Virus record (IMG/VR): IMGVR_UViG_3300031998_000511
Span: 1 to 30,755 of that record
Direction: 5' to 3' (one strand)
Length of the DNA stretch: 30,755 nt
Source: a virus
Position numbers and translations under genes: made by a program. The notes under the pieces are model-generated. The model saw only the letters and a list, made by a program, of their open reading frames with translations. It was not told the DNA's origin and made no database searches. Below, in pieces: positions 3,537-30,755 of the stretch; the first letter of the stretch is position 1, and the number at the start of each line of letters is the position of its first letter.

Positions 3537-3550
3537 AAAAAACTAATTTA
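3537..3550 (+). promoter_or_regulatory. Motif A copy 1 (AAAAAACTAATTTA), candidate late promoter or RNA signal
   Basis: Exact 14-mer immediately after the terminator, 27 nt upstream of ATG 3578, followed by AGGGT. Confidence 0.5.
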
Positions 3551-3577: not shown

Positions 3578-3814
3578 ATGGACAGAAACGAACAGAAACA
3601 GGCAGAAGCCGTTGAAGAAAAGGACTTTTTGACCGCTATCGTAGACTTTTTTGAAAAGCTGGCCGAAAAGTACGAATTTGACGAGAACGAACAGGCGGAG
3701 TTCCGTGAGATCCTGTTTGGTGGCGAGAACGCCCGCAACGCTGGCCCGATGTATGACGCCGAAGCAGTTGAAATGGTAGAAGATACCGAAGAACCCGAAA
3801 CCGAAGAGGACTAG
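3578..3814 (+). CDS. Hypothetical acidic protein
   Basis: 78-aa ORF with AAAGGGG upstream. It is strongly Glu/Asp-rich. Confidence 0.5.
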   Translation: MDRNEQKQAEAVEEKDFLTAIVDFFEKLAEKYEFDENEQAEFREILFGGENARNAGPMYDAEAVEMVEDTEEPETEED

Positions 3815-4233: not shown

Positions 4234-4681
4234 AGTCAAAAATCCCGTTGGGAACCCGAATATTGTAGAAGCGGGCAAGAAAACACAGATTACGCCCGAA
4301 ATCGCAAACGAATACAGGCTGAAAGGGCTTGCAATTCGGCGCCATTTGACAGAACAGAAGAAAGTCTGGGAAACACCCGCCGACCTACCGAAAGAACAGG
4401 CCGAATTTTTCGCTATGTTCGGATTTGTAGGGCCGCGCCAGAAGCTCATTGACAATAAATATAAATTCGCGTACAAGGCGCTTAAGAAAGCCTATGACAA
4501 AGGCGACCTAAACAACATTATCAAGTTTTTCCAGATGTTAGGCTTGGATTGGGCGGCAGACGCGGCGCAATTTATGGCGGCTTTCAACGCGACTATAAAC
4601 AAGCCCGAAGAAACCGACAAGAACGAACCTGTTGAATTTGTCTTTACGAGAGTTGGCGCCGATGCGGAAAATACAAATTGA
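4226..4681 (+). CDS. terS: Putative terminase small subunit (GTG start)
   Basis: The position directly upstream of and overlapping terL, the size (151 aa) and the basic N-terminus (PKVKNPVGNPNIVEAGKKT) are typical of small terminases. The call rests on position and motif only. Confidence 0.5.
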   Translation: MPKVKNPVGNPNIVEAGKKTQITPEIANEYRLKGLAIRRHLTEQKKVWETPADLPKEQAEFFAMFGFVGPRQKLIDNKYKFAYKALKKAYDKGDLNNIIKFFQMLGLDWAADAAQFMAAFNATINKPEETDKNEPVEFVFTRVGADAENTN

Positions 4682-5954
4682 CTTTCTACCGCATCAAGAC
4701 CGCCTTTTTTTCAATAATTCACGAATAAAGGGGCTTTATTGCGGGCGCGGCGCTGGCAAATCGTTCTATATGATTACAAGCGCGGCTTGCGACCTTGTAC
4801 AAGGCTTGCGCGTCCTGTACTTTTGCCAGACGAACAGCGTAATGGAAGGCCAATTTTTGCCCTTCATCATAGAAACGCTTGAAAATTGGGGCTTTAGCCC
4901 GAAAGTCAACGAAAAGAAACATATTATTAGCTTGCCCAACGGCGGGAAGCTGTTTTATTTTTCCTATGAAAACTACAAAAAGAGCCGCGGCGCTACAAAG
5001 ATCCGCAAGATTTACTTTGACGAAATAGCGCTGGGGCCGAAGCCTTCACTTTTGTTTTCGGCGGTGGCGCCCTGTATGCGAGATTCGGGCGGCATTACCG
5101 AATTGATATTTGCCAGCACCCCGAACAAGGGTAGCGAATGGGATAAATGGGTAAAAAGCCTGAAGCCAGAAAAATTCGTTATTACGGGCGTCACGATGGA
5201 CGATAACCCGAAGGCAAGCGAGGAAGAAAAACAGCTTATCAAAGACCTTATTAGCGGCGATCCTAACTTTTTACGCCAAGAGTTCTACGGGGAAATTCTG
5301 GACGATGATTTAGCGTTTTGCGTATTGCACAGCGCCGACTTTCCGCAATTCCAGCAAAGCAGACGCGGCTTTGTTTCCATCGGTTGCGATTGCGCGGGCG
5401 AGGGGCGCGACAAGTTTATTTTTTCCGCCATTGACGAAAGCGGCATTTTGGAGCTGGTGGAAACAACGAAGGCCGACACACAGGCGCAATTTTCAATTGT
5501 ACGCGAATTGGTACACAAATACGATGCGCTGCAGATCGTAATAGACAATACGGGCGGTTTCGGCAAGGGGCTTTTTGACCTTTGCAAGCGGGCTTTCCTT
5601 GTCAACGGGCGGGAAGTTGAAGTTATCGGCGTAAACTTTGGCGAGGGCGCCGAAGATAAAAAGAGCTATGCCAACGCCCGCGCGGAAATGTACTTTGAGT
5701 TTGCCGAAGGTGTCAAGAACGGCTTTTTTGTTTCCAGCGAAGCGGCCCGCGAAGAATTGACGCATACAACTTACTTTAAGACCAATTCGGGCAAGGTTCA
5801 ATTGATCGACAAGGAAGAAATAAAGGCCCTTATTGGTCGTTCCCCCGACACGGCGGATTCGCTTTGCTTGGCTTGGTACAAGCGCAAGGAAATAAAGGCC
5901 CACGCTGACGCCCGACAGGTTGCGGCGGCGTTCCTAAAGGCTTTCGGGCATTAA
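4662..5954 (+). CDS. terL: Terminase large subunit
   Basis: Walker A is GLYCGRGAGKSF and Walker B-like is KIYFDEIAL. The C-terminal nuclease-type acidic motifs are IGCDCAGEGRDKF, VIDNTGGFG and SPDTADSL. I prefer ATG 4662 over the TTG at 4632. Confidence 0.9.
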   Translation: MRKIQIDFLPHQDRLFFNNSRIKGLYCGRGAGKSFYMITSAACDLVQGLRVLYFCQTNSVMEGQFLPFIIETLENWGFSPKVNEKKHIISLPNGGKLFYFSYENYKKSRGATKIRKIYFDEIALGPKPSLLFSAVAPCMRDSGGITELIFASTPNKGSEWDKWVKSLKPEKFVITGVTMDDNPKASEEEKQLIKDLISGDPNFLRQEFYGEILDDDLAFCVLHSADFPQFQQSRRGFVSIGCDCAGEGRDKFIFSAIDESGILELVETTKADTQAQFSIVRELVHKYDALQIVIDNTGGFGKGLFDLCKRAFLVNGREVEVIGVNFGEGAEDKKSYANARAEMYFEFAEGVKNGFFVSSEAAREELTHTTYFKTNSGKVQLIDKEEIKALIGRSPDTADSLCLAWYKRKEIKAHADARQVAAAFLKAFGH

Positions 5955-5966
5955 AAAACTAATTTA
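5953..5966 (+). promoter_or_regulatory. Motif A copy 2
   Basis: Exact AAAAAACTAATTTA overlapping the terL stop (TAA 5952..5954), followed by TGGGT. The ATGs at 5966 and 5972 follow directly. Confidence 0.45.
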
Positions 5967-8892: not shown

Positions 8893-9279
8893 GGTATGGT
8901 TGGAAGGGTAAGGGCAGAAACGGCCCCAGAACGCGCGTATTGTCGGGTACAATTTTGACGGAAAAAACGAATTGAGCAATAGGTAAGCAATTGCTTTTCA
9001 ATTGGTTTGTAATTGCTATGTGATTTTTTCACTTTCGGAAAGAAATTTTATAAAAAATCGTGAATGAAAGCGAAAAATTAAACAAAATGTTGAGTTTTTG
9101 AGCGAAAAACGCAGTTTTTCGTAATTAAGCAATTGCTTTGCTATTGCTTTGCAATAGGTAAGCTATTCTGTCTTATTGTCTATATTACTATTTTACTATC
9201 TATTTCTTTATTTTCTTTTGGTTCTTTTCTTTTTTTCTTTGCCAGTTCCGAAAAAAACTTTTTTATTGGAATTGTAGCC
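8893..9279. other. Long AT-rich non-coding region with palindromes, direct repeats and a polypyrimidine tract
   Basis: No ORF larger than a few codons on the + strand. AAGCAATTGCTT occurs at 8985..8996 and 9127..9138. CAATAGGTAAGC occurs at 8977..8988 and 9152..9163. CTATTGC-ttt-GCAATAG is at 9141..9157, AGCGAAAAA at 9069 and 9101, and a T/C tract at 9196..9240. Confidence 0.85.
9161..9240 (+). repeat. About 80-bp intergenic element, paralogous to 24121..24200
   Basis: The two elements are colinear. CTTATTGTCTATAT (9172..9185 = 24132..24145) and the 23-mer TTTTCTTTTGGTTCTTTTCTTTT (9211..9233 = 24171..24193) are exact, and roughly three quarters of positions match overall. Confidence 0.85.
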
Positions 9280-9293
9280 AAAAAACTAATTTA
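9280..9293 (+). promoter_or_regulatory. Motif A copy 3
   Basis: Exact AAAAAACTAATTTA followed by TGGTT, 71 nt upstream of the preferred scaffold start. Confidence 0.5.
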
Positions 9294-11752: not shown

Positions 11753-12223
11753 ATGGAATTTAAACGAATATCAAGCAAGCGGCTTACAGAGCTGTTGACA
11801 GCGAAAAAGGGCGGGAGTATAACAACCGCCGAAAACGAGGAATTGGGCTTTTATGCCCAGAATTTCGCAAACATAATTTTGAGAACGCCGAAAATGCGGC
11901 GTTTTCTTTTTTTATACGATCCAAAAAAGGTTTATGACCTTGAAAACGAGATGCGGGCGCAAATATCCATAACGATTGTTGGCGCCTGTCCTTACAGCTA
12001 CGAAAAGAGCTTTGCAAAATCGTATTCGTATTGCCTTTATTGCGCGAACAGCGCCGCTTGCGGAGTTATTAGGCGCCATATTAGGCGCTTGAAGATTGAA
12101 GGGGTTATAAGGCATATTTCTAGCTTGTGGATAGCCGACCTTTTCCCATATCTTCACAAGGTTAGGAACCTAAACAGAAGCGCCACCAGCGAAAAAACTA
12201 ATTTATGTTTAGAGGAATTTTAG
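11753..12223 (+). CDS. Sigma-factor region-2-like small protein (T4 gp55-type late sigma candidate)
   Basis: 156-aa ORF with GGGAG 9 nt upstream. The segments NEELGFYAQNFANIILR..., ...RRFLFLYD...ENEMRAQISITIV... and ...YSYEKSFAKSYSYCLYCANSAACGVIRRHIRRLK follow the remembered sigma region 2 / gp55 pattern (hydrophobic helix, R-F-x-F-x-x-Y, EM..a..I, F-D-x-x-K...aY....N-a-f...I-K-K). This is not a computed alignment. Confidence 0.35.
   Translation: MEFKRISSKRLTELLTAKKGGSITTAENEELGFYAQNFANIILRTPKMRRFLFLYDPKKVYDLENEMRAQISITIVGACPYSYEKSFAKSYSYCLYCANSAACGVIRRHIRRLKIEGVIRHISSLWIADLFPYLHKVRNLNRSATSEKTNLCLEEF
12192..12205 (+). promoter_or_regulatory. Motif A copy 4
   Basis: Exact AAAAAACTAATTTA inside the 3' end of the sigma-like ORF, followed by TGTTT, 21 nt upstream of ATG 12227. 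Confidence 0.5.
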
Positions 12224-15500: not shown

Positions 15501-16490
15501 ATGGCTAGAGTTTACAACAGCACGCGTTTAATGCTTGACCCTAACTTTATCCTTTCGGCGCGAAGGGCCGCAGACGAGCGCGAAGCCGCCGCGCGTGAAA
15601 GCCGCCGCGACATTGCAAAGGGCATTAACCAGACTTTGGGCGCCATTGGTGGCGGCATTGACTACGCATTGCGTAATATGGCAAAGAGCGACCGCCGCGA
15701 CATTATGGCGAACGCACCAGACATTGATGATCCCGAATACAAAGCCGCTGTTGAACGTTTCGTTGAAACGGGAGATTTAAGCGGAATTAACGCTTACCGA
15801 CAAATCAAGGAAGGCCGCGAGAGAATGGCCCGCGAGGAAGCCGCCCGCGAAAAGGAACTTGGAATTAGGAAGCGCGAAGCCGAAACGATGGCACAGAGAA
15901 CGGCGCTTGAAGATGCGAAAATCAAGGAAGGATTGGCCGAGAAAGCAAGGCTGGATTTACAGGAAGCCGAAATTGAATACAAAAACGCTATAACGGGCGC
16001 CGACAAGGAACGCGCAAAAGTCAACATCAACAGGGCATTGCTTGACCTTAAGAGCGCTGGCAAAGATGTTAGCGGATATGTGTTGCCAGACGAAAAGCCA
16101 AGCGGCGATATTGGCGGAGCTGGTACCGAAGGCGCCGCCGATGATGGCAAATCCATTAGGGCGCAAATAAACGATTTCAAAGCAAGGCTTAACGCTGGGT
16201 TCAACACGAAGGCGGAACAGGCCGCGTTTATTGAAGAAGTGAAGGCAAAGCGCGAAGGCTTGAAGGGCGCCGAAGTTGACGAATTTGTCAAGCTCATTGA
16301 CGATGCGCGAAAGGTAAAGCCCGAAGAAAAGAAGGCCGAAGAAAAGAAGGCGGCACAGAAAAAGAAAGCCGACCTTTACGCCGAAAAGAGCAAGAGCGCC
16401 GCCGAATTTTTCGTTTGGTTCAATGGCCTTAACGAAAAAGACCAAGCAGATTACGAAGCCGCATTTAAAGAAGTTTACGGGGGCAAATGA
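15501..16490 (+). CDS. Internal/ejection protein candidate (charged, coiled-coil)
   Basis: 329 aa, Ala/Glu/Lys/Arg-rich. The call is positional. Confidence 0.4.
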   Translation: MARVYNSTRLMLDPNFILSARRAADEREAAARESRRDIAKGINQTLGAIGGGIDYALRNMAKSDRRDIMANAPDIDDPEYKAAVERFVETGDLSGINAYRQIKEGRERMAREEAAREKELGIRKREAETMAQRTALEDAKIKEGLAEKARLDLQEAEIEYKNAITGADKERAKVNINRALLDLKSAGKDVSGYVLPDEKPSGDIGGAGTEGAADDGKSIRAQINDFKARLNAGFNTKAEQAAFIEEVKAKREGLKGAEVDEFVKLIDDARKVKPEEKKAEEKKAAQKKKADLYAEKSKSAAEFFVWFNGLNEKDQADYEAAFKEVYGGK

Positions 16491-20629: not shown

Positions 20630-20898
20630 AGGTCTTTTTAGAGCTTATAGCCAAGTATGGCGGCGCAAGCGGGCTTATTGCCGCGTTTTGCGTTTACATC
20701 GCTTGCGCCAACGGCGTAGACAAGGCGAAGGAAAGCACCCAGCAGAACTACAAGTTGTTTGAATACCGCGTTTTGACGCTGGAATCGCAACAGAAGGAAA
20801 CGGCGGCGCAATTCGGGGAGATACAGAAGGCGCTTTTAAACATCAATGTTTCTATTTCAAGGATTGAAACGCTTTTGGAAAAAGCGCCAAAAAACTAA
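20626..20898 (+). CDS. Small protein with one TM segment and a coiled coil (holin-like or tail-associated, undecided)
   Basis: A hydrophobic GGASGLIAAFCVYIACANGV segment followed by a heptad region. It overlaps the tailspike stop. Confidence 0.4.
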   Translation: MKVFLELIAKYGGASGLIAAFCVYIACANGVDKAKESTQQNYKLFEYRVLTLESQQKETAAQFGEIQKALLNINVSISRIETLLEKAPKN

Positions 20899-20902
20899 TT
20901 TA
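20889..20902 (+). promoter_or_regulatory. Motif A copy 5
   Basis: Exact AAAAAACTAATTTA spanning the stop TAA at 20896..20898, followed by AGGTT, 19 nt upstream of ATG 20922. Confidence 0.5.
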
Positions 20903-21631: not shown

Positions 21632-24088
21632 ATGAGAATTAACGCTTTAGGCAATACCGCCACCGACTTTGCAAACGATGACTATATAGTCATTGACGGA
21701 ACCACAAACGGCTCACGAAAAATGGCTAAAAGCTCACTTTTAAAAGTGACAAAAGAAAACGCAATAAAAGAAACTATTTCTAATTCTTTTGATCCTTCTA
21801 GAATTGAAGCGACAAAATATTTAGCTGGAGAAAGCGTTGTATATGAAGATTCTGTATATACATTTTTGGTTGATCATTATGGAGCTTGGGATAGCTCAAA
21901 GGTTCAAAAAGTTTTATCTTTAGATACTAAAACTAAAGACCACGCAAAATTAAAAAGTTGTAAATCTAAAGGATTTAATTATACTAAAGTATCGTATAAT
22001 TTTGGAAATAGAGCTTGGGGAATAAATCAAAAAATAAACGGATTTGTAAAAAGGGTTTCAGCTGTTTTAAATCCTTATTCTTCTATAGATGTTGTTTTTG
22101 TATCTAAACTAACAAAAGACTATAAAAAAATTTCAACGCTTGTAAATTCAACTTCAACAATTAAAGAAATTTCTGTTGATGTTGATGCTTACATAAATGG
22201 ATATATAGGATTGTCGGAAACTAGCGGTTTTTCTGTACTTCCTTTAGTTAAAAGAAATGACGGGTTTTGCAATGGTTTTGCATTTGTTTATAGTACCCTT
22301 AATTTTGAAGAAACAAAAAATTGGACTCCAGCAATAAGCATTGATTATTATGACATAGAAGATTATATAGACAAACAAGAAACAACATATACAAATATTA
22401 TATCTTCTAACGCTTCGCCAAGCTATGCAATAAACCAATCGTTTTCTAGAGCCGTTACGCTTAATAAAAGTTATAAAGGCAAAGTAAAGAATGTTAGTGC
22501 ATTTGTAAAAGCAAATAGCGAAATTGCAGTAGTAGTTTGCAATGATAACGATTTTACACCTTATATTGTATTGACTAATTCAACAAGTTCTGATTCTTGG
22601 ATTAGTGCAGATTGTGATATTAAATTAGACGATGGCGATTTTATAGGTATAATGCCTTTTGGTGGAACAACAGATGTTTATTGTCAAAGAAACAATGTTA
22701 ATGGCGGCGCAAGGTTCTATTTCACTAATACAGGCGTTTTTATAAATGAAAGCGATGTTTGGACAATAGCATTAAGATGTGTAATTGAAAGTAGCGTTAA
22801 AATTAGTGAAGAAAACGCAATTGAGATACCGAAAAATATTATTGTTCCTATTTATGGCCAATCATTAAGCGTTGGTGCTGACGCTACCCCGCAATTAAAA
22901 TCCGCTGGAATAATTAACGGAAATTCAATGAATGGTAAAGTAATTTGTACGTCTTTAAATATGACAACGCTTAATAGGTACGAATTGACTTTAATAAATG
23001 AATATGACCAAGAAACACCCGCAACAGGTTGTGTTTTGGGAATTTTTGAAGAATTAAGCAGGCTTACAAATATTCCAAAAAATTCTAAAGTGTGGGAAAC
23101 AATTAAGGTATTTGCTGTTTCTTGCGGCCAAGGATCTTCTTCGCTTGAGTCTTTGGCAGATCCAGACGGGACGCTTTATTCTGGTCTTATTAATGCCGTT
23201 ACCAGACTAAATACGTTAATAACTGACATTGGAGAAACAGCATTTATTCCAGCTCTCGTATGGATTCAAGGCGAAACAAATATGCGCTATGGCGTTACTT
23301 CGCCTTCTTATTACGCAGATGACTACAAAAATAAATTGTCTAATTTAGTTGCATCTATTAACACTGATTTTAAATCAATAACAGGACAGCTAGAAGATAT
23401 TAAGTGCGTTTGCTATCAAACTTCATCGCAGGGGTATATTAACGGGCAATATTACCAGCTAGATTGGAATTTTGTAAATATTCCTAAATTGTCAAAAGTT
23501 CCAATGGAGCAAATGCTTGCTGTAAGAGATTTAAGCAATTTTGTTGCAAGTGCTCCAGCATATACCATTGAACATAACGAAGATGTTGTTGGAAAAGCAA
23601 ATATTCATTTAACAAATGTTGGATCTAGGCATTTGGGGTATTTTTGCGGTAGCTCTATAGCTAATATCATATATGGTAAAAATCAAAAATGCGGAATTTT
23701 GCCAATATCTTACAATGTTGTTGGTAATGACATTACAATTAAATTTTTAGTTGAAAATGGAACATTGACAACAGATTCTTCTTTTGTAAAACGAATTTCC
23801 AATTATGGATTTTCTGTTATGACAAGTGGGAATATCGATATAATTACAAGTGTTGATATTTTTGAAGATTCTGTTGAAATTAAGTGCAGTCAAAGCCCTG
23901 TTGGCGCATTGTTAAGTTATGGTTGTATTGGAACAGATAACTACGATGGAAAAACAAAGGGCGCTAGAGGAAACTTGTGTTCAACATATTACAATTTTGT
24001 AGAAATTGAAAACAAAAAAATTGTCCAAAAAGAATTCTGTTATTCTTTCTATTGCGTTTTAGCGGCTGGGCAAAACAATATAGAATAA
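21632..24088 (+). CDS. Second receptor-binding fibre with a SASA/SGNH-type carbohydrate esterase domain
   Basis: 818 aa. The C-terminal half carries IVPIYGQSLSVGADA, LVWIQGETNMRYG and ANIHLTNVGSRHLG. These match the remembered sialate O-acetylesterase (SASA) landmarks GQSN, W.QGE.D and a His-containing block. Composition is markedly AT-rich from about 21730 onward. Confidence 0.6.
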   Translation: MRINALGNTATDFANDDYIVIDGTTNGSRKMAKSSLLKVTKENAIKETISNSFDPSRIEATKYLAGESVVYEDSVYTFLVDHYGAWDSSKVQKVLSLDTKTKDHAKLKSCKSKGFNYTKVSYNFGNRAWGINQKINGFVKRVSAVLNPYSSIDVVFVSKLTKDYKKISTLVNSTSTIKEISVDVDAYINGYIGLSETSGFSVLPLVKRNDGFCNGFAFVYSTLNFEETKNWTPAISIDYYDIEDYIDKQETTYTNIISSNASPSYAINQSFSRAVTLNKSYKGKVKNVSAFVKANSEIAVVVCNDNDFTPYIVLTNSTSSDSWISADCDIKLDDGDFIGIMPFGGTTDVYCQRNNVNGGARFYFTNTGVFINESDVWTIALRCVIESSVKISEENAIEIPKNIIVPIYGQSLSVGADATPQLKSAGIINGNSMNGKVICTSLNMTTLNRYELTLINEYDQETPATGCVLGIFEELSRLTNIPKNSKVWETIKVFAVSCGQGSSSLESLADPDGTLYSGLINAVTRLNTLITDIGETAFIPALVWIQGETNMRYGVTSPSYYADDYKNKLSNLVASINTDFKSITGQLEDIKCVCYQTSSQGYINGQYYQLDWNFVNIPKLSKVPMEQMLAVRDLSNFVASAPAYTIEHNEDVVGKANIHLTNVGSRHLGYFCGSSIANIIYGKNQKCGILPISYNVVGNDITIKFLVENGTLTTDSSFVKRISNYGFSVMTSGNIDIITSVDIFEDSVEIKCSQSPVGALLSYGCIGTDNYDGKTKGARGNLCSTYYNFVEIENKKIVQKEFCYSFYCVLAAGQNNIE

Positions 24089-24120
24089 CCAATAGTTTAG
24101 CAATAGCTTAACGATAGCGA

Positions 24121-24200
24121 AGCAATCTTGACTTATTGTCTATATGACTATTTGTCTATATTGCTTTGCTTTTTCTTTTGGTTCTTTTCTTTTGTAACTT
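24121..24200 (+). repeat. Intergenic element paralogous to 9161..9240, containing two direct TTGTCTATAT copies
   Basis: See 9161..9240. TTGTCTATAT occurs at 24136..24145 and 24152..24161. Confidence 0.85.
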
Positions 24201-24209
24201 TTTATTTAC

Positions 24210-24237
24210 TTGCTTTGCCTTCCAAAAAGGCTATATT
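24210..24237 (+). promoter_or_regulatory. Sigma70-type promoter candidate (TTGCTT-16-TATATT) for the early operon
   Basis: TTGCTT at 24210..24215, a 16-nt spacer, then TATATT at 24232..24237. The hexamers are the same as in the promoters at 27391 and 29541. Confidence 0.55.
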
Positions 24238-24291
24238 TTAGGTGCTGGACATTACATCTTGTTTATTCTTCCTTTTGTAGTTTACGGGGGC

Positions 24292-24329
24292 GGGCGGCGT
24301 TGAGATAGTCCAGCATTTCGGCGCCGCCC
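24292..24329 (+). promoter_or_regulatory. GC-rich hairpin in the early-operon leader, with a GTCCAGC site in its loop
   Basis: GGGCGGCG (24292..24299) pairs with CGCCGCCC (24322..24329) around a 22-nt loop, followed by ttcccttttc. Confidence 0.3.
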
Positions 24330-24357
24330 TTCCCTTTTCAAAAAACAAGGCTGGACA

Positions 24358-24963
24358 ATGTTTTTTCACTTTGATTTCTACCCCGCCGACCTTATGGCGG
24401 TTATAGCTGGACGCACAGCGGAGGACGCTGGCGAGATTGTCCAGCAATGGCTTATTGGCCTAATATCCAATTCAACAGATGGCGTAAAGGATCGCAAGGC
24501 GCGCGAAAGCGTGGAAAAAATGCTTGACAATTGCCGCCGCCGTTCCGATATATACAGGGCCAACGGGTTGAAGCGCAATAAAGGCCCCGTAAAGCCCGAA
24601 AATCCCGAACCCAAGGAAACACCCGAACCGCAGAAGAAAGCGGCCCCGAAGCCGCCCAAATCGCCGCTATTCGGCTTTGCGCTGGTAAACGTTACCGAAA
24701 AGGAAAAGGCCGACTTGGAAAAGCGTTTTGGCGCCAAGCTACAGCGTATGGCCGATATATTGCAGAACTACAAGGAAAGCACAGGCAAGAAATACAAGAG
24801 CGATGCGGCGGCGTTGCGCGGCTGGGTTGCCGACAAGGTGGCCGAACAGGAACGCCGACAGGGTGCAAAGGGTTTCAAGGAACAGGAACGCGCGCGCGAT
24901 GCACAGAACGCCGCCGAAATGCTGACAGACGAACAGAAACGTTATTACGGGCTGGACAATTAA
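24358..24963 (+). CDS. Replisome-organiser / replication-initiation-like protein (DUF1376-like N-terminus)
   Basis: The N-terminus is MFFHFDFYPADLMAVIAGRTAEDAGEIVQQW. The C-terminal VTEKEKADLEKRFGAKLQRMADILQNYKESTGKKYKSDAAALRGWV resembles the remembered phage replisome-organiser tail (LT.eE...L...fG...i..L..Y....GkkYkSd.a.i..W). Confidence 0.45.
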   Translation: MFFHFDFYPADLMAVIAGRTAEDAGEIVQQWLIGLISNSTDGVKDRKARESVEKMLDNCRRRSDIYRANGLKRNKGPVKPENPEPKETPEPQKKAAPKPPKSPLFGFALVNVTEKEKADLEKRFGAKLQRMADILQNYKESTGKKYKSDAAALRGWVADKVAEQERRQGAKGFKEQERARDAQNAAEMLTDEQKRYYGLDN

Positions 24964-24964
24964 G

Positions 24965-25459
24965 ATGGAACAGGAACAGGTAACGAAGATGGCGGCGCAG
25001 ATCCGCCGCGAAGTAATCTATTATTTGCTCAAAAACGAATTCTTGGCGAACCGCCAGAGCATACCCGAAAAGGAAACATTGGCGTATGAAATTGAGCGCA
25101 TAAGCGCCATACCTTGCCAGACGAAGCTGTTGAAGCGGCTTTTTGAAGAAGCGAGGGAATACCGAGAAGAACGCGGCTTTTACCCAAGCGCAGTAACGAT
25201 TGCGGATTTGGAAGCGGCTTGGAAGTACAAGCCCGTTGGCTACGTTTGCAACCAAAATGTAAAATTCGGTTTCCTTCCTTGGAAAAAGGACAAGGAATTG
25301 CGGGCGCTTCCATCCGTTAAAGCGTTGCTTGAAGGCTACAGGGTTCTTTTGAGGAAAGGCGAGAAAATACCATTGCCAGCGCCCGAAGGCGAAAGCGAAG
25401 CGAAGAAGATAGCGGGAATTGTGGCGAACCATCTAACGCAAGGGGCTAAAAATGCTTGA
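24965..25459 (+). CDS. Hypothetical early protein
   Basis: 164-aa ORF whose start is preceded by GGCTGGACAATTAAG. Confidence 0.5.
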   Translation: MEQEQVTKMAAQIRREVIYYLLKNEFLANRQSIPEKETLAYEIERISAIPCQTKLLKRLFEEAREYREERGFYPSAVTIADLEAAWKYKPVGYVCNQNVKFGFLPWKKDKELRALPSVKALLEGYRVLLRKGEKIPLPAPEGESEAKKIAGIVANHLTQGAKNA

Positions 25460-25907
25460 AAATACGGACACTATTAGCTTTTTGCCGAATATAGACGATC
25501 TTGAATACGAAGGGCGCCTTGTCGCTACGGATTGGGCGCCAGCTAACCTTGACGAAAACGGAATGTTTCGCGGTGCTGTAAGACACTACGAAGCGGGTAG
25601 CTATCTAAAAACGTACCTTGAAATGAAGATTTGCAGATACGGGCTTTTTGTCCGCTATCAATTTTCTTACGGCCATAAGACCTACGGAACGGCGCGCCCG
25701 TTTGCGGTTGATTGTAGCGGTTCTTGTCACAGGGGCAACGCGCCCGAATTTATCGCGGACGGGATTAGAAACGAACTTTGGTACAGGCTTGTAGACGATG
25801 GCAACTTGGACAACGAAGGCCGCAAGGCGATAATAAAGCTTTATGACAGCAAGATAAAGGAACAGGTAACAAGGGATTTGCGAGGGCCGGACAATGGGAA
25901 AATTTGA
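25452..25907 (+). CDS. Hypothetical early protein
   Basis: 151-aa ORF with AAGGGG upstream. No family is recognised. Confidence 0.5.
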   Translation: MLENTDTISFLPNIDDLEYEGRLVATDWAPANLDENGMFRGAVRHYEAGSYLKTYLEMKICRYGLFVRYQFSYGHKTYGTARPFAVDCSGSCHRGNAPEFIADGIRNELWYRLVDDGNLDNEGRKAIIKLYDSKIKEQVTRDLRGPDNGKI

Positions 25908-26502
25908 AGATGATTTGAAGCGCGTTAGGCTTGAAGAAAAGGCAAAGCCCTTTGATTGGTTTAGCTTTCTTGAAAATGACGCAAACAAAGCTATAAGAAA
26001 GTTTATACAGGCAAACAAACGAAAAATCGTTATCAATTGGAACGCGAGAACCTACAGGGAATTTAGGCGCATTTTTGATTTTGTCAATGAGCTTGTAACA
26101 ATTCCAGATCCGCAAACAACTTTCTATTGCGTTGCGCCGAAGTTCAAAGTAAAGGAATTTAAGGTATATAAGCGGCGTTTCGGTTTCGGCCATTGCAAGT
26201 TCTATATAAATCTTGAATGGCCTTTCGTGATTTACTACAGGCGCGTTGTAGATGTGCTGGCGGACAACGAAATAAAGTCAAGCGAATTTGCGAAGATGGA
26301 AGGCGCCAAGCATAACGAAATATACTGCAAGGAATATCCTTTTGAAAAGGAATTTTCTTTTGAGTTTGCCCAATGCGGAAAGAACGCCAAATGGATATTT
26401 AACGAAATCTATTTAAGGTTTTTGAACGCGAGATTTTACGCGATTAGCCAGCAGATGAATAACCCGCCGAAAAGTGTAGAAGAATTTACAGAGCAGAATT
26501 AG
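25894..26502 (+). CDS. Hypothetical early protein
   Basis: 202-aa ORF whose start is embedded in GGCCGGACAATG. Confidence 0.5.
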   Translation: MGKFEDDLKRVRLEEKAKPFDWFSFLENDANKAIRKFIQANKRKIVINWNARTYREFRRIFDFVNELVTIPDPQTTFYCVAPKFKVKEFKVYKRRFGFGHCKFYINLEWPFVIYYRRVVDVLADNEIKSSEFAKMEGAKHNEIYCKEYPFEKEFSFEFAQCGKNAKWIFNEIYLRFLNARFYAISQQMNNPPKSVEEFTEQN

Positions 26503-26553
26503 CGAATTTGAGCGAAAAACAGCAATTTCAAGAAAAATTATTGTATATTATGA
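26500..26553 (+). repeat. Direct repeat, left copy, bracketing the methyltransferase cassette. It includes a TATATT -10-like block.
   Basis: TAGCGAATTTGAGCGAAAAACAGCAATTTCAAGAAAAATTA plus TTGTATATTATGA. It begins at the TAG stop of the upstream gene. TATATT is at 26544..26549. Confidence 0.9.
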
Positions 26554-26604
26554 ATAACGGCGGCGATGTTGCCGCGTAATGCCCCGAAGGGCAAAGGCTG
26601 GACA

Positions 26605-27333
26605 ATGCAGATTAACGGAAAAGTACATTGCTTCTTTGAGCAAAGCGGCACTTTCAAGAACGAATTTATCAAGTTGGGCATCCCTGCCGAAGATTACGAC
26701 ATACAAAATAATTTCGGGCAGACCGACCACGTTGTAGACCTTTTTGAAAACATACAAAATGCTTACGAGGGGGGGGCAAGCGTGTTTGACAACATAACAA
26801 AAGAAGATTTGATTGTTGCGTTTTTCCCTTGTATTTATTTTTGTTGTATGTCGCAAATGGCTTTTACGCTTGGTTATACGAATTATAGAAAAATGACTGA
26901 TGCGGAAAAAATACAAGCAATAATTAAACGTGAAGAAAATCGTACTATCTTTTATAAGATTATGTTAAAGCTTATTGGAGTTTGCTATAAAAGAGGGTTA
27001 AGGCTTGTAATTGAAAACCCTTGGAGCGAACAAACTTATTTAAAAGCAAATGCGCCAAAAGCGCCTGATATTGTAGATATTGACAGAACCAGGCGCGGAG
27101 ATTGTATGGTAAAACCAACCGCATATTGGTTTTATAATTGCTCACCAACAAACGGCTTTACCAACCAACAATACAGGGGGAAGCCGAAAACAATTTTAGA
27201 CACAAAGGGAAGTTCTGTTGCTGGTGTATGTTCCGAAGATCGTAGTATGATTTTGCCCGATTACGCTAGAAATTGGATTTGTGATTTTGTTTTAGGGAAA
27301 AAACAAAATATTGGTCAACTTTCACTTTTTTAG
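26605..27333 (+). CDS. Divergent DNA (cytosine-5) methyltransferase-like protein
   Basis: I prefer ATG 26605, which is embedded in AAAGGCTGGACAATG. The motif order is FFEQSGTF (motif I-like), FFPCIYF (Pro-Cys, motif IV-like), VIENPWS (ENV-like) and DRTRRGD (motif VIII-like). It is short (242 aa) and degenerate. Confidence 0.45.
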   Translation: MQINGKVHCFFEQSGTFKNEFIKLGIPAEDYDIQNNFGQTDHVVDLFENIQNAYEGGASVFDNITKEDLIVAFFPCIYFCCMSQMAFTLGYTNYRKMTDAEKIQAIIKREENRTIFYKIMLKLIGVCYKRGLRLVIENPWSEQTYLKANAPKAPDIVDIDRTRRGDCMVKPTAYWFYNCSPTNGFTNQQYRGKPKTILDTKGSSVAGVCSEDRSMILPDYARNWICDFVLGKKQNIGQLSLF

Positions 27334-27423
27334 CGAATTTGAGCGAAAAACGGCAATTTCAAGAAAAATTAAAATTTTTGTTAAAAAGTATTGCTTTTAA
27401 CAAAAAATTATTGTATATTATGA
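27331..27423 (+). repeat. Direct repeat, right copy, carrying a 39-bp insertion with an inverted repeat and the promoter TTGCTT-17-TATATT
   Basis: 27331..27371 matches 26500..26540 with one A/G difference, and 27411..27423 matches 26541..26553. The insert has the inverted repeat TTGTTAAAAAG/CTTTTAACAA (27378..27403) overlapping -35 TTGCTT (27391..27396). The -10 TATATT is at 27414..27419. Confidence 0.9.
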
Positions 27424-27464
27424 TTGTCGGGCAATGGGGCTTGACATAACAAAGGCTGGACGCT

Positions 27465-27803
27465 ATGAAAAAACAAAACAAAACCTATCTTTCTTTGGCA
27501 GAACAGGGCATTTCCAAAGCTTGGGATAAAATAGTTATCTTCAATGAAAGAAGAATTGAAAAAATGCAAATGGTGGTTTACTACCAAAACAAGCCGTTCT
27601 ACTATTGGCCAGTAAAAGACGCTTTTGATGTTGACGACTTGAGATTCAGGCTTGAAGTTATGATTGATCTTTACAATAGGTCAACGTTAAACCTGCGCAA
27701 GATAAAAAAGGCTATTACCCGCTATTTTGTTTCGGGTGACGCTGGCGAAAGGGTAATTACCTACAGGCGCGGCGGCGTTTTCTTCCCTTCTACGGGGGTG
27801 TAA
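27465..27803 (+). CDS. Hypothetical early protein
   Basis: 112-aa ORF whose start is preceded by AAAGGCTGGACGCT. Confidence 0.5.
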   Translation: MKKQNKTYLSLAEQGISKAWDKIVIFNERRIEKMQMVVYYQNKPFYYWPVKDAFDVDDLRFRLEVMIDLYNRSTLNLRKIKKAITRYFVSGDAGERVITYRRGGVFFPSTGV

Positions 27804-27804
27804 T

Positions 27805-28896
27805 ATGAAATACAAATTTACAGAAGAAACAAAAGTTTATTTTGGCCGAACTTTTCATAGAATTGTATGCGTTACGGCTTTCGCAAACGTGGCCGCTGGA
27901 GAACTTGGCGGCTGGATTGAAAAAGAACAAAATTTAGATCAATGCGGCAATGCGTGGGTCTACGGCAATGCGGAGGTCTGCGGCAATGCGAAGGTCTACG
28001 GCGATGCGAAGGTCTACGGCAATGCGGAGGTCTACGGCGATGCGAAGGTCTACGGCGATGCGAAGGTCTGCGGCGATGCGGAGGTCTGCGGCAATGCGGA
28101 GGTCTACGGCGATGCGAAGGTCTGCGGCAATGCGGAGGTCTGCGGCAATGCGAAGGTCTACGGCGATGCGGAGGTCTGCGGCAATGCGAAGGTCTACGGC
28201 AATGCGAAGGTCTACGGCGATGCGGAGGTCTGCGGCAATGCGTGGGTCTACGGCAATGCGAAGGTCTACGGCGATGCGGAGGTCTACGGCAATGCGTGGG
28301 TCTACGGCAATGCGAAGGTCTGCGGCAATGCGGAGGTCTGCGGCGATGCGGAGGTCTACGGCGATGCGGAGGTCTGCGGCGATGCGGAGGTCTACGGCAA
28401 TGCGAAGGTCTGCGGCAATGCGAAGGTCTACGGCGATGCGGAGGTCTGCGGCAATGCGAAGGTCTACGGCAATGCGAAGGTCTACGGCGATGCGGAGGTC
28501 TGCGGCAATGCGGAGGTCTACTGCAATGCGAAGGTCTGCGGCAATGCGAAGGTCTACGGCGATGCGGAGGTCTGCGGCAATGCGAAGGTCTACGGCAATG
28601 CGAAGGTCTACGGCGATGCGGAGGTCTGCGGCAATGCGGAGGTCTACGGCAATGCGAAGGTCTACGGCGATGCGGATTATATCGTATTGAAAAATAATTG
28701 GAGTTCTGGCCGATATTTTACCTATACGCTATCTAACAAGATGTGGAAAGTTGGTTGCTTCTTCGGAACAGGCGAAGAATTGATAAAAAAAGCGTATGCA
28801 GATAGCGAAATTTCGGGCAGATGTTACGAAGCTTCCGTCAAGTATGTTGAAGAACTGATTAGAATAAAGGAAGGTTTAAAATGCATAACGGAATAA
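27805..28896 (+). CDS. Hexapeptide-repeat (predicted beta-helix) protein with short unique N- and C-terminal domains
   Basis: 363 aa. The N-terminus (...FHRIVCVTAFANVAAGELGGWIEKEQNLDQ) is followed by 40 units of G-[ND]-A-[KEW]-V-[YC] and then a roughly 70-aa C-terminal domain. GGGGG lies upstream of the ATG. Confidence 0.8.
   Translation: MKYKFTEETKVYFGRTFHRIVCVTAFANVAAGELGGWIEKEQNLDQCGNAWVYGNAEVCGNAKVYGDAKVYGNAEVYGDAKVYGDAKVCGDAEVCGNAEVYGDAKVCGNAEVCGNAKVYGDAEVCGNAKVYGNAKVYGDAEVCGNAWVYGNAKVYGDAEVYGNAWVYGNAKVCGNAEVCGDAEVYGDAEVCGDAEVYGNAKVCGNAKVYGDAEVCGNAKVYGNAKVYGDAEVCGNAEVYCNAKVCGNAKVYGDAEVCGNAKVYGNAKVYGDAEVCGNAEVYGNAKVYGDADYIVLKNNWSSGRYFTYTLSNKMWKVGCFFGTGEELIKKAYADSEISGRCYEASVKYVEELIRIKEGLKCITE
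27946..28677 (+). repeat. 18-bp tandem repeat, about 40.7 units (GGC RAT GCG RRG GTC TRC)
   Basis: Read unit by unit. Variation is confined to four positions plus three TGG codons and one TGC for GGC. 28396..28521 and 28522..28647 form a 126-bp tandem duplication that differs at one base. Confidence 0.95.
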
Positions 28897-28970
28897 ACGT
28901 TTTCGCTGGCTTGGCTTGTGTTTTCCTGTACGGCGCTTTGCTTTGGCTTTGCGCCTTGATTGAGGGGTAA
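28881..28970 (+). CDS. Possible 29-aa hydrophobic peptide
   Basis: ATG 28881 follows AAGGAAGG, and the translation is MHNGINVFAGLACVFLYGALLWLCALIEG. It fills the gap to 28974 and is below the track cutoff. Confidence 0.3.
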   Translation: MHNGINVFAGLACVFLYGALLWLCALIEG

Positions 28971-28973
28971 AAT

Positions 28974-29342
28974 ATGGAACTAAAAGTATATCATTGCAAC
29001 GAATGGCACAACGAACATACAGAATTTTACCTAAAGAACGAAGCAGACAAGTTGATTGAAAGAAAAGACAAGGCTTTTGAATATGCACAAGCCGTTATTT
29101 TGGTTGATATTGGAATTATCAAGAAGCAGAAAAGAAAGCGTTGCTTGGCTATGGCTGAATGGTGCGAATCTACGGCGCTGTGGTGTTATCAAGCGGCTAA
29201 CACACTACCCATAGGTTTTCACGCAACATTATACGGAAAGCCTGTAATGATAGAGCCAGACCGCTTATTCAAGCGGTTTGTGCTTCTAAAAAATTGGAGC
29301 AAGCGTTGGCGTAAACTTGCCGAGAAATTTAAAAAGGGGTAA
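28974..29342 (+). CDS. Hypothetical early protein
   Basis: 122-aa ORF with GAGGGG upstream. Confidence 0.5.
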   Translation: MELKVYHCNEWHNEHTEFYLKNEADKLIERKDKAFEYAQAVILVDIGIIKKQKRKRCLAMAEWCESTALWCYQAANTLPIGFHATLYGKPVMIEPDRLFKRFVLLKNWSKRWRKLAEKFKKG

Positions 29343-29345
29343 ACT

Positions 29346-29534
29346 ATGGAAAGTACAATTGAAATTAGGCACAATGGCGCCTGTGTCAAGATCACTTGCA
29401 AGAATGGCCGTTGCTATTACAACACCAGCGGCCAGCCTTCAAAGGAACTTGTCAAGGTTATTCAATACTTGGAACAGGTACGCGCGCCGATGGCTACCGC
29501 TTCCAAAATGGTTATTTCCGAAATGTTAAAATAA
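29346..29534 (+). CDS. Hypothetical small protein
   Basis: 62-aa ORF with AAGGGG upstream. Confidence 0.45.
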   Translation: MESTIEIRHNGACVKITCKNGRCYYNTSGQPSKELVKVIQYLEQVRAPMATASKMVISEMLK

Positions 29535-29540
29535 TTTTTC

Positions 29541-29569
29541 TTGCATTATCCAAAATGTTAAAGTATATT
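29541..29569 (+). promoter_or_regulatory. Sigma70-type promoter candidate (TTGCAT-17-TATATT) for the recombination operon
   Basis: TTGCAT at 29541..29546, a 17-nt spacer, then TATATT at 29564..29569, 38 nt upstream of the erf ATG. Confidence 0.6.
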
Positions 29570-29607
29570 TCACTTAACAACGCCCAAAAGGGCAAAGGCT
29601 GGACAAT

Positions 29608-30222
29608 ATGAATATCTACGAAAAACTTAACGCGGCCCGTTTGCAGATTGCAGAAAAGGGCCTTTCCAAGACAGGCAACAACACTTTCGCGGGGTTCAAG
29701 TATTTTGAGCTTTCCGAAATCTTGCCCGTTGTCAACAAGGTCAACAACGAATTGAATCTGTTTAGCGCGTTTTCTTTCTTGCGCGATACGGCAACGCTGG
29801 AGATCGTGAACGCGGAGAAGCCTGAAGAAAAGGTTACGTTCTCGTTTGCTTACTCCCCCGATGGCGCGAAGCTTAAGGCTTGCCACCAGATACAGAACGA
29901 AGGCGCCGTACAGACCTACATAAAGCGCTATCTTTACCAGAACGCCTACGAAATCGCCGAAGCAGACCAGCTTGACGCGTCCGTTGGACGCGATGAACCG
30001 AAGCCGACCAGCAAGCCCACAAAGCCCGCGAAGGCTAGCGAAGCGCCGAAGGTTTCCAAGAAATCGTTTGCGGAAACTATCGCCGAAGTTGCGAAAGACC
30101 ACCAAGAAGAACTTTACGAAGCCTTGGGCAAGAACGGCTACGAAAGCGTTGACGAAATTATTGAAAGACAGGCGCAAGTTGCCTTCTATTCCGACCTTAT
30201 GAACATTATTCACAGCAAGTAA
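29608..30222 (+). CDS. erf: ERF-family single-strand annealing protein (recombinase)
   Basis: NIYEKLNAARLQI...KTGNNTFAGFKYFELSEILPVVNKV... and GAVQTYIKRYLYQNAYEI match the remembered ERF landmarks (ykY..l.dil..v and G...TY.rRY.l). It is followed by a low-complexity Pro/Lys tail and sits in an operon with ssb. Confidence 0.7.
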   Translation: MNIYEKLNAARLQIAEKGLSKTGNNTFAGFKYFELSEILPVVNKVNNELNLFSAFSFLRDTATLEIVNAEKPEEKVTFSFAYSPDGAKLKACHQIQNEGAVQTYIKRYLYQNAYEIAEADQLDASVGRDEPKPTSKPTKPAKASEAPKVSKKSFAETIAEVAKDHQEELYEALGKNGYESVDEIIERQAQVAFYSDLMNIIHSK

Positions 30223-30250
30223 ACAAACATAACTACAAAGGGGGCCAAAT

Positions 30251-30755
30251 ATGGCTAAAGAAGTTGCAATTTTTGACGAGAACGATTTTAAGCAGATAGT
30301 TTTCACACCAGCCGCGCAAGATGCGTACAATTTCGCATTGCAGAACGCGGGCTTGGAAATGGAAGCTGGTAGCGGCGAAGAAGCCGACTTTATCCAGCAC
30401 CGAAACAACAAAAGCGGCTGGCGCGATCTTTGGGAGCTTAAAACGCTTCTTGAAAAGGGCGCCGCTTCCATCAAGGAAGTTGTAAAACACACTTTCAATA
30501 TTGGCGGCTGGGAAAGCTTGCCCGAAGCGAAAGAAAACAACGGCGTAAAGATTAGCTGGAGCAAGCAAAGCTATACTTACGAATACCAAGTTGACGGGTG
30601 CGGCGCTTCCATTATGGCGGCTTTACAGGAAAAGGGCCTTTGTAGCGTTGAACAGGTTTTAAGCCTTGTTCCCGTCAACATCTTCGCGAAGGCGGCTGGC
30701 GTGAGCCAAGAAAAGATGTTTGAAATGTTCCCAGAATTCATTTGCGCGAAGGCAA
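30251..30755 (+). CDS. 5' part of the junction-spanning hypothetical CDS. It runs off the window end and continues at base 128 after removal of the duplicated 127 bp.
   Basis: ATG 30251 has AAAGGGGG upstream, and there is no stop before the window end. It is not in the ORF track because it is open-ended. Confidence 0.7.
   Translation, partial: MAKEVAIFDENDFKQIVFTPAAQDAYNFALQNAGLEMEAGSGEEADFIQHRNNKSGWRDLWELKTLLEKGAASIKEVVKHTFNIGGWESLPEAKENNGVKISWSKQSYTYEYQVDGCGASIMAALQEKGLCSVEQVLSLVPVNIFAKAAGVSQEKMFEMFPEFICAKA
30629..30755. repeat. Terminal direct repeat, copy 2
   Basis: Identical to 1..127. Confidence 0.95.

Follow-up and report, generated by a model that had tools for sequence, protein, structure and literature searches.

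The early region of an uncultivated phage, held as IMG/VR record IMGVR_UViG_3300031998_000511 (positions 1 to 30,755; this whole stretch of 30,755 nucleotides (nt) is called the window here), carries a short block of sequence, which we call the tag, in front of the start codons of six early genes. We found that the reverse complement of the tag fills the whole apical loop of a hairpin in the leader of the first of these genes, that a further copy of the tag lies upstream of the hairpin in the same leader, and that these three sites change together in related phages, in three classes. RNA-level pairing of the loop with the tags, similar to that of P1 c4, P4 CI or IsrK, has in our judgement an even chance of being the right reading.

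Position and frequency of the tag

A first-pass annotation of the window had pointed to the 10-mer GCTGGACAAT at six early start codons. The 10-mer is indeed present five times, at 24350, 24951, 26597 and 29598 on the + strand and inverted at 24436, and the six start codons open reading frames (ORFs) at 24358, 24965, 25894, 26605, 27465 and 29608. The chance expectation had been given as about 0.06 occurrences; the comparison with shuffled controls that had been proposed as a check gave five copies observed against a mean of 0.03. The heptamer GCTGGAC occurs seven times on the + strand and twice on the - strand of the 6.7-kb early region, as against two and one in the 24-kb late region, where the count is about at chance level. 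Of the nine copies on the + strand, five have their end 1-8 nt ahead of one of the 42 gene starts considered (binomial P = 1.9e-8), all gene-start copies have the same orientation, and GCTGGAC and GGCTGGA are the commonest 7-mers in the 15 nt before starts. As had been stated, late genes go without: no late gene start has GCTGGAC.

The conserved core is GGCTGGAC, that is GG-CTGGAC, and consists of the end of the Shine-Dalgarno (SD) sequence and the spacer between SD and AUG. A trailing AAT, formerly counted as part of the block, does not belong to it, since the next 1-7 nt, AAT included, differ among orthologues. The proposal that AAGG serves as SD agrees with the AAGG or GGG found 7-9 nt before ATG; CUGGAC is spacer and not SD, and only the first part of the block is a purine-rich match to the anti-SD at 5-10 nt from the start. 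Most other genes of the window have A(A)GGGG(C/U) as SD, 5-8 nt before ATG. The tag proper, GGCUGGAC, is GC-rich, ends 1-7 nt before AUG and falls, by fold prediction, in weakly structured RNA. At 25894 the block had been listed with the others; in the window it is a one-mismatch version (GCCGGAC), and it reads GCTGGAC in the 98%-identical relative L021. Three copies, the ones that count most, had been overlooked: one at 24244 (+, the predicted transcription start), one at 24308 (-, in the hairpin loop) and one at 24406 (+, inside gene 1).

The early leader and its hairpin

Gene 1, annotated as replisome-organizer-like by PHROGs, is preceded by an intergenic leader (24089-24357) in which repeats, a T-rich stretch, a promoter, GCTGGAC, about 45 nt of pyrimidine-rich sequence, a hairpin, a tail and the tag follow each other. 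The early promoter, as read from the sequence, is sigma70-like and lies at 24210-24237 on the + strand (TTGCTT at 24210-24215, N16, TATATT at 24232-24237). A TTGaca-like hexamer, N16-17 and TATATT are kept in most relatives despite differing spacer sequence (in L018 the spacer has 20 nt), and TATATT is 6-8 nt upstream of the 5' site in every leader. This 5' site, TGCTGGAC, is at 24243-24250 (+); G 24244 is the 7th nt after the -10 box and the predicted first base of the leader transcript.

The leader hairpin (24292-24329, +), a terminator-like match in a consensus scan, has a 15-bp GC stem and the 8-nt loop AGUCCAGC at 24307-24314. This loop, which reads as the tag's reverse complement and is called the anti-tag here, is encoded about 40 nt upstream of gene 1. 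A repeat finder gave 24243-24250 as complementary to 24308-24315 (8 nt, 100%) and 24347-24359 as complementary to 24305-24317 (13 nt, 85%), and the leader folds beyond shuffled controls (z = -3.9). Of the features of an intrinsic terminator the GC hairpin is present; the pyrimidine-rich tail TTCCCTTTTC (24330-24339, +) is a weak, interrupted U-tract, and in the relatives of classes 1-3 the tails are U/C-rich yet interrupted as well. Between hairpin and tag the sequence is the tail UUCCCUUUUC. The tag of gene 1 (24349-24357, +) is GGCTGGAC plus A and is directly followed by ATG 24358. A leader peptide beginning after the 5' site (AUG in L075; UUG or AUU elsewhere) was considered and dropped, as class 2 does not conserve it.

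Upstream of the early promoter, 24095-24172, like the corresponding place in all relatives, holds tandem TGACT(T)ATTTGTCTATA repeats, CAATAGC-type repeats and an imperfect inverted repeat of 25 nt (24116-24170). Classes 1-3 have all preserved repeats of TGTCTATAT there. From their sequence, the repeats at 24095-24172 are candidate origin iterons or operators for the neighbouring gene 1. The tag was discarded as an origin iteron: the repeats kept across classes upstream of the promoter are of the TGTCTATA(T) and CAATAGC types, not CTGGAC.

Covariation across related leaders

The search for relatives gave 37 gene-1 homologues, and their contigs yielded 19 distinct leaders with the same order of parts in all. 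In these leaders 5' site, loop and tag change together and form three classes. Class 1 (the window, L002, L016, L017, L021, L025, L070, L072, L074, L075, L084 and L082) has GCUGGAC as 5' site, GUCCAGC in the loop and GGCUGGAC as tag. In class 2 (L018, L029, L030 and L031) the three read ACUGGAC, GUCCAGU and ACUGGAC, and in class 3 (L028 and L093, from two different studies) AAUUGGAC, GUCCAAUU and AAUUGGAC.

Pairs were counted on a covariance model and a structure-aware alignment of the leaders. MAFFT and covariance-model alignments misregister the loop-flanking base in classes 2 and 3, and the sequences themselves were therefore used to read this covarying position. Between 5' site and loop, the six core pairs are standard pairs in 100% of 18 leaders, with one compensatory change (C-G to U-A) and one G.U, which comes from the 5' site CUGGGC of L016. 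The six core pairs between loop and gene-1 tag are 100% paired in 19 leaders, again with one compensatory change. In the hairpin stem four pairs are changed on both sides across the 19 leaders; stem cells scored as unpaired arise because the alignment sets classes 2 and 3 off by one base, and every sequence, in each class, gives on folding a strong and intact hairpin that presents the anti-tag in its apical loop. The spacing between the three leader sites varies, from 57 to 63 and from 32 to 43 bp.

The form of the tags at other genes follows the class of the loop. In class 1 it is GCUGGAC, with one exception (ACUGGAC in L016), and the one additional tagged gene of class 2 has ACUGGAC. A bias towards G.U over mismatches in variant tags would separate RNA from DNA; one G.U and two mismatches were seen, too few cases for this test. 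The duplex predicted between the loop and the translation initiation region is -14.2 to -14.3 kcal/mol for five tagged starts and -10.6 or weaker for the other 36, among them the degenerate tag of gene 4 with -9.6 kcal/mol; these energies follow from the complementarity and are therefore not independent evidence.

Mobility of the leader and mosaic joints

One relative, L013, carries the window's ~24105-24392, a module of ~290 bp, at ≥99% identity between flanks of ~50% identity. The N-terminal domain of its gene-1 protein is 76-86% identical to the class-2/3 proteins and 59% to that of the window, and its other early genes are untagged. Thus, the class of the sites is not tied to the gene-1 protein, the three leader sites move together with no adjacent protein gene, and the module apparently works without a matched gene-1 protein. 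The gene-1 protein was rejected as binder of the sites, since their class is independent of its N-terminal domain.

Joints at the tag are seen elsewhere, too. In gene-4 orthologues, similarity ends at the tag, and the sequence upstream of it is unrelated. In L023 the leader of the methyltransferase gene is fused at the tag to the gene g112, and so is the ERF leader, the latter at a contig end, where it may be an assembly artefact. As in PeSL-like shared-leader cassettes, one leader unit stands before different genes at mosaic joints. The phage encodes an Erf-type annealing protein. The first-pass annotation had considered a boundary sequence for the exchange of early cassettes; the flanks of gene 4, the L023 fusions and the L013 swap speak for this as a by-product, and purifying selection on the tag speaks against it as the sole role. 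That the tags serve as microhomology for early-cassette exchange is supported as a consequence, a side effect of the shared regulatory sequence.

A similar arrangement is found in L083 and L094, whose gene 1 is diverged (N-terminus ~40% identical) and whose leader is unrelated. This leader has a 19-bp hairpin with a 7-nt loop and a clean U6 tract; the loop and two stem bases (ACGGGCUAG) are perfectly complementary to the 9-mer CUAGCCCGU, located 11 nt downstream of TATATT. In L083 the arms of this 9-bp inverted pair are 38 bp apart and one lies in the terminator loop. Copies of the site at ribosome-binding sites (RBS) were not found in the L083/L094 lineage, so the part common to all lineages is the pairing of 5' site and terminator loop. 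Judging from these sequences, the RBS tags are apparently an extension found in classes 1-3, most numerous in the window lineage, and the design of 5' site and terminator loop seems to have arisen, or been kept, twice.

L094 also has a repeated 40-nt leader, GCGATTCCTACTGGACGGAATTTGAAGACTAAC(C/A)AACAAAAGGA, before two genes (3750-3806 and 4470-4524). It contains ACTGGAC about 30 nt before ATG, in a phage that has no GTCCAG loop.

The tagged early genes

The tagged genes of class 1 are gene 1, gene 2, gene 4, g112, ERF, the methyltransferase gene, a PAPS-reductase-like gene, a family of 140 amino acids (aa) and two singletons; the tag precedes at least 10 unrelated gene families across all classes and at least 8 in class 1. 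In the window lineage every promoter-proximal early gene is tagged (four genes), and two tags lie at intra-operon starts within coding sequence and without a promoter, those of genes 2 and 4. As a transcription start or promoter element at every gene the tag was rejected, because there is no -10 box at a fixed distance (26-45 nt).

The tag of gene 2 (24950-24957, +; ATG 24965) sits in the final codons of gene 1 (..G L D N stop). Tagged gene 1 proteins end in ..YGLD(N) and those of untagged relatives in YGL or YGI, so that the tag is carried by one or two extra codons. Before gene 4 (ATG 25894) the degenerate tag GGCCGGAC (25885-25892, +) falls in the final part of the preceding ORF; L021, L002, L024 and L074, whose upstream sequences are mutually unrelated, have GGGCTGGAC instead. 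Gene 2 (24965-25459) and gene 4 (25894-26502) fall into one BLAST cluster across relatives and, by this token, may be paralogues.

Three tagged genes have leaders of their own on the + strand. The methyltransferase leader (26544-26604) comprises TATATT (26544-26549), two small hairpins, the second being GCCCCGAAGGGC at 26581-26592, the tag at 26596-26603 and ATG 26605. The ORF has a further in-frame ATG upstream, at 26566. The start at 26605 is supported by L023, where the same leader is fused to g112 and the ORF from the upstream ATG is merely short, ending in a TGA that overlaps the ATG next to the tag. The g112 leader (27414-27464) has TATATT at 27414-27419, the tag at 27454-27461 and ATG 27465. 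Conservation relative to the flanks, which had been named as a decisive check, is evident here: across 10 tagged orthologous leaders no change is seen in the tag, while the 3-nt spacer reads GCT, AAA, ACT or AAT. In orthologous leaders generally the 1-3 nt before ATG vary, and in several cases all of the upstream sequence does as well. The g112 orthologue of L075-77 sits behind another gene and has no tag. The ERF leader (29541-29607) has TTGCAT-N17-TATATT (29541-29569), the hairpin GCCCAAAAGGGC (29582-29593), the tag at 29597-29604 and ATG 29608. It has 18-26 nt in common with the methyltransferase leader, and the 18 identical nt reported before were recovered as the 18-mer GGGCAAAGGCTGGACAAT at 26589 and 29590. 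The small GCCC-N4-GGGC hairpins (26581-26592, 29582-29593) stand directly before the AAAGG SD of these two leaders; in relatives the stems are kept and the loops vary (AAAA, CGAA, CGAGA-type, GACA).

Inside gene 1 are an extra tag (GCTGGAC, codons Ala-Gly-Arg; 24406-24412, +) and an extra anti-tag (ATTGTCCAGCA on the + strand; 24436-24446, -). Most class-1 relatives keep both; L017 has lost both through synonymous changes, and the anti-tag is also lost in L070 and class 2. In the minimum free energy fold of 24330-24460 the anti-tag at 24436-24446 is predicted to pair with the gene-1 tag over 10 bp, in a long-range helix that would close the ribosome-binding site of gene 1.

Genome context and other repeats

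All genes of the window are on the + strand. Packaging and structural genes are at 4.6-24.1 kb, where relatives have a terminase, a P22-type portal and tail genes, and replication, recombination and small genes are at 24.1-30.7 kb and 0-4.6 kb. Among the genes of the latter two stretches are the replisome-organizer-like gene 1 and those for a DNA methyltransferase, ERF, SSB and a polynucleotide kinase/phosphatase-like protein. Protein families were searched with Pfam and PHROG in 20 of the 42 window proteins, which cover the small ORFs in part; no integrase or repressor was seen among these 20. The relatives are contigs of 27-30 kb with the gene order of the window. Sample names hint at the rumen or gut as a possible source of the lineage. 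Among GenBank phages there was no close relative, and only the beta-solenoid repeat gene described below matched. A gene-1 profile search of GTDB genomes for a prophage or host returned distant matches to the C-terminal domain only and no host; the Fib_succ_major domain in tail genes of relatives is a mere hint to Fibrobacter or Bacteroidota. Scans of IMG/VR with exact patterns for class-2/3 and L083-type leaders gave chance matches or none. P0046, P0048, P0051 and P0052 are 60-68% relatives of the L083-type gene 1, and a protein scan with P0046 returned a different phage family. L032-L036 were uninformative, having only the C-terminal domain of gene 1 in common and a different leader with iterons (CTTCTAT) and no hairpin.

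Just before the leader, at 21632-24088, is a gene for 818 aa with a GC content of 31-35%, compared to ~47% elsewhere. Its position holds a different gene in each relative, with Fib_succ_major, Beta_helix, Metallophos, GDPD or CBM_5_12 domains. From sequence it looks like a swappable receptor-binding or depolymerase module, with the Fib_succ_major domain as the host hint. Among the early genes, 27805-28896 encodes a 363-aa protein made up nearly entirely of hexapeptide-type repeats (GNAKVYGDAEVC...); the models matched are YdcK beta-solenoid and bactofilin. In the early region, GenBank phages (Streptococcus, Bacteroides, Acidovorax) match the DNA of this gene alone.

Two further repeats were found in the window. 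AAAAACTAATTT is present in five exact copies, on the + strand only (3538-3549, 5954-5965, 9281-9292, 12193-12204 and 20890-20901), directly or 20-30 nt before the starts of late or middle gene blocks, and abuts ATG at three sites. It is also found in relatives of two lineages (L094 at ~9800, L002 at 16104-16125) and could, by its location, be a late promoter or another late control element. The 14-mer TTTGAGCGAAAAAC (9097-9110, 26507-26520 and 27338-27351) is the core of a longer repeat, TAGCGAATTTGAGCGAAAAAC(A/G)GCAATTTCAAGAAAAATT. The copies at 26.5 and 27.3 kb are intergenic, just upstream of early promoters (TTATTGTATATTATGA), and the third is before the gene at 9293; taken alone, the 14-mer was not significant against shuffles.

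Discussion

Complementarity, placement of the anti-tag in the loop, covariation of three sites and stem, position at the start codon, conservation next to variable flanks and transfer as a unit were all observed directly. A function at the RNA level is favoured because the tags are in the SD-to-AUG spacer, also inside operons, and in one orientation, and because the sole conserved inverted copy is the whole apical loop of a covarying hairpin; direct pairing of loop and tag is favoured because of the covariation. By analogy, a loop of 7-8 nt fully complementary to its target has the geometry of kissing-loop or loop-to-5'-end antisense systems. The block would then be an RNA tag in which the last G's of the SD and CUGGAC fill the SD-to-AUG spacer of gene 1 and, in this lineage, five more early genes. 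The leader transcript would start with GCUGGAC at 24244. In cis, the loop would pair in kissing-loop or pseudoknot style with the 5'-terminal copy and the gene-1 tag; in trans, a short leader RNA, stabilised or terminated and released at the hairpin, would pair with the tags of other early mRNAs. Pairing would cover about -2 to -12 and keep the 30S subunit off, leading to shut-down of, or feedback on, early translation, and the 5'-terminal copy could be an internal competitor or 5'-end protector. The effect may go in either direction, repression or activation, and may be exerted in cis or in trans; in plasmid repZ a loop-RBS pseudoknot can activate. More tentatively, we propose that the system is self-contained: the terminator loop of an abundant early leader RNA might be a 7-8 nt antisense seed that jointly controls up to seven early genes, with at least three mutually orthogonal natural classes, a swappable module of ~290 bp and tags that double as cassette joints.

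In phage P1 the target of c4 overlaps the icd ribosome-binding region, and matched changes of regulator and target give P1 and P7 separate specificities. Full repression of ant, a gene of the c4-icd-ant operon of P1, requires the C4 antisense RNA, for which the immI region contains a binding site (PMC8198154), and P4 CI is a regulator RNA in an operon leader with the targets seqA and seqC upstream and downstream of it (PMC4825925). The leader described here is like P1/P7 c4 and P4 CI in that a leader-encoded regulator has complementary targets on both sides (24243-24250 and the tag at 24349-24357, with the loop at 24307-24314). It differs from the C4 family in having a single loop of 7-8 nt in a simple terminator-like hairpin instead of a processed, cloverleaf-like RNA, and up to seven targets over 5 kb. 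When 24000-30755 was scanned against Rfam 15 under permissive filters, no family, C4 included, matched at E <= 1; the leader RNA is not an Rfam C4 member. C4 RNAs are released by RNase P and serve in lysogenic immunity; the latter role is unlikely here, as no integrase or repressor was among the 20 of 42 proteins scanned.

Other systems have parts in common with the leader. The leader transcript of Gifsy-1 IsrK either terminates, giving a small RNA, or reads through, giving an mRNA, and the small RNA acts in trans on translation of the read-through mRNA (PMC4825925). The likeness would be a leader-derived RNA that is terminated or read through; the differences are that IsrK activates by structure remodelling and that no RBS tag is common to several genes there. 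In IS10, the loop of the antisense hairpin RNA-OUT pairs with the extreme 5' end of RNA-IN, including the ribosome-binding site. The terminator loop is the pairing seed in RepG of H. pylori (PMC8295292). These two regulators are encoded separately or on the opposite strand, whereas here the loop and the 5'-end target are in one transcript. Expression of the initiators repZ (IncI-alpha/IncB) and repC (pT181) is set by leader loop pairing beside the RBS or by leader pairing that decides on termination; a separate antisense promoter is used there, none is needed here, and the tag is spread to genes outside replication. The PeSL cassettes of T4-type phages, units of early promoter, stem-loop and leader, flank small genes and sit at shuffling joints, but are described as recombination or promoter modules without complementarity of tag and anti-tag.

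The tag resembles the sites of T4 RegA and RegB in being present in many early translation initiation regions and absent from late genes, which would permit joint post-transcriptional shut-off. A translational operator of the early regulon, as envisaged by the first-pass annotation, agrees with the position in the SD-to-AUG spacer, the intra-operon starts, the conservation in relatives and the at least 10 families; the partner to which the data point is the RNA loop of the early leader and not a RegA-like protein. A RegA-like repressor or RegB-like endoribonuclease reading single-stranded GCUGGAC, with the loop copy as decoy or unrelated, would account for tags restricted to the ribosome-binding region of early genes and lying in weakly structured RNA, and many small early proteins of no known function could do the reading. 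We regard it as quite unlikely. It neither needs nor explains a complementary loop that covaries with the tag, for which RegA and RegB, being proteins, have no place; three classes would demand matched protein changes; and neither a RegA-family repressor nor a nuclease family was matched among the 20 proteins scanned, which do not include every small ORF. Moreover, RegA sites are AU-rich and overlap AUG and RegB cuts GGAG, whereas the tag is GC-rich and upstream of AUG. A CsrA-type GGA site was rejected because it, too, leaves the complementary loop unexplained. Alternatively, a phage or host protein could bind the asymmetric GCTGGAC in double-stranded DNA and shut off early transcription; its sites would be the +1 position of the main early promoter, the leader and, for the other early promoters, places 25-45 bp downstream. 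The clustering of copies of either orientation within 200 bp where gene 1 starts, a site at all four promoter-proximal early genes, class covariation of all copies as expected from a changed protein specificity, and two weak helix-turn-helix candidates (176-400, HTH_39, E = 4e-4; 1219-1527, HTH_28, E = 0.01) would fit. Such an operator leaves unexplained why two sites are at intra-operon start codons in coding sequence without a promoter, why gene-start copies are all in one orientation 1-7 nt from ATG, why the inverted copy is the exact apical loop in all classes and why the module entered L013 without a neighbouring protein gene and with a site class independent of the gene-1 protein. The variable spacing of the three leader sites and the inverted pair in the unrelated leader of L083, again with one arm in a terminator loop, are also at odds with it. 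The DNA operator, which had been offered before as one possibility, is therefore less well supported, and we consider it unlikely.

If the block were only a remnant and substrate of cassette shuffling, a short homology for the Erf-type annealing protein with no regulation, the unrelated upstream sequences of the gene-4 orthologues, the L023 fusions to g112, the 18 nt common to two leaders, the clean swap in L013 and the presence of ERF and SSB would all follow. It would remain unexplained why the tag is invariant while the adjacent 1-3 nt of spacer and synonymous sites vary, why it is always in the SD-to-AUG spacer and why it has a covarying loop complement; in addition, one of the two L023 fusions is the possible artefact. 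Recombination as the only role is thus very unlikely. It is highly improbable that the block acts by pairing with host rRNA, as an extended SD or an enhancer. AAGG or GGG is at SD distance, and AAGGCU resembles the general A(A)GGGG(C/U) SD. Beyond AAGG, however, manual alignment to an E. coli-type 3' end gave no canonical anti-SD match, three tag classes among close relatives fit poorly with an rRNA partner that does not vary, and untagged early and late genes, as well as the untagged g112 orthologue of L075-77, manage without.

Several points weigh against pairing of loop and tags in RNA. Transcription start, 3' end and short RNA are all predicted only, and the U-tracts after the hairpin are poor in classes 1-3. 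Covariation of the inverted copy would arise just as readily if one protein read the site in double-stranded DNA, and the independent covariation events are few (two positions, three classes). The tag at 25886 (GCCGGAC) and one tag of L016 (ACUGGAC in a class-1 genome) break the pair. The 5' copy is usually at least equal to the RBS tags in complementarity to the loop, and masking in cis could leave little activity in trans; a seed of 7 bp is short for an Hfq-independent interaction in trans. Finally, L083 and L094 have no RBS tags, and the core function may concern the leader itself, for example its termination or stability, and not translation.

To our knowledge, antisense control encoded by phages has been described for only a few systems, all of temperate coliphages (P1 c4, P4 CI, P22 sar, IsrK). 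If pairing of the leader loop with the tags holds true, this would be an RNA-only regulon in an uncultivated, apparently virulent phage lineage with genomes of ~30 kb. Its design would be simple and portable, one loop and one 7-nt tag in the SD-to-AUG spacer, with natural orthogonal variants that could be useful as compact translational switches, and it would provide a direct link between the sharing of regulatory sequence and the mosaicism of early cassettes.

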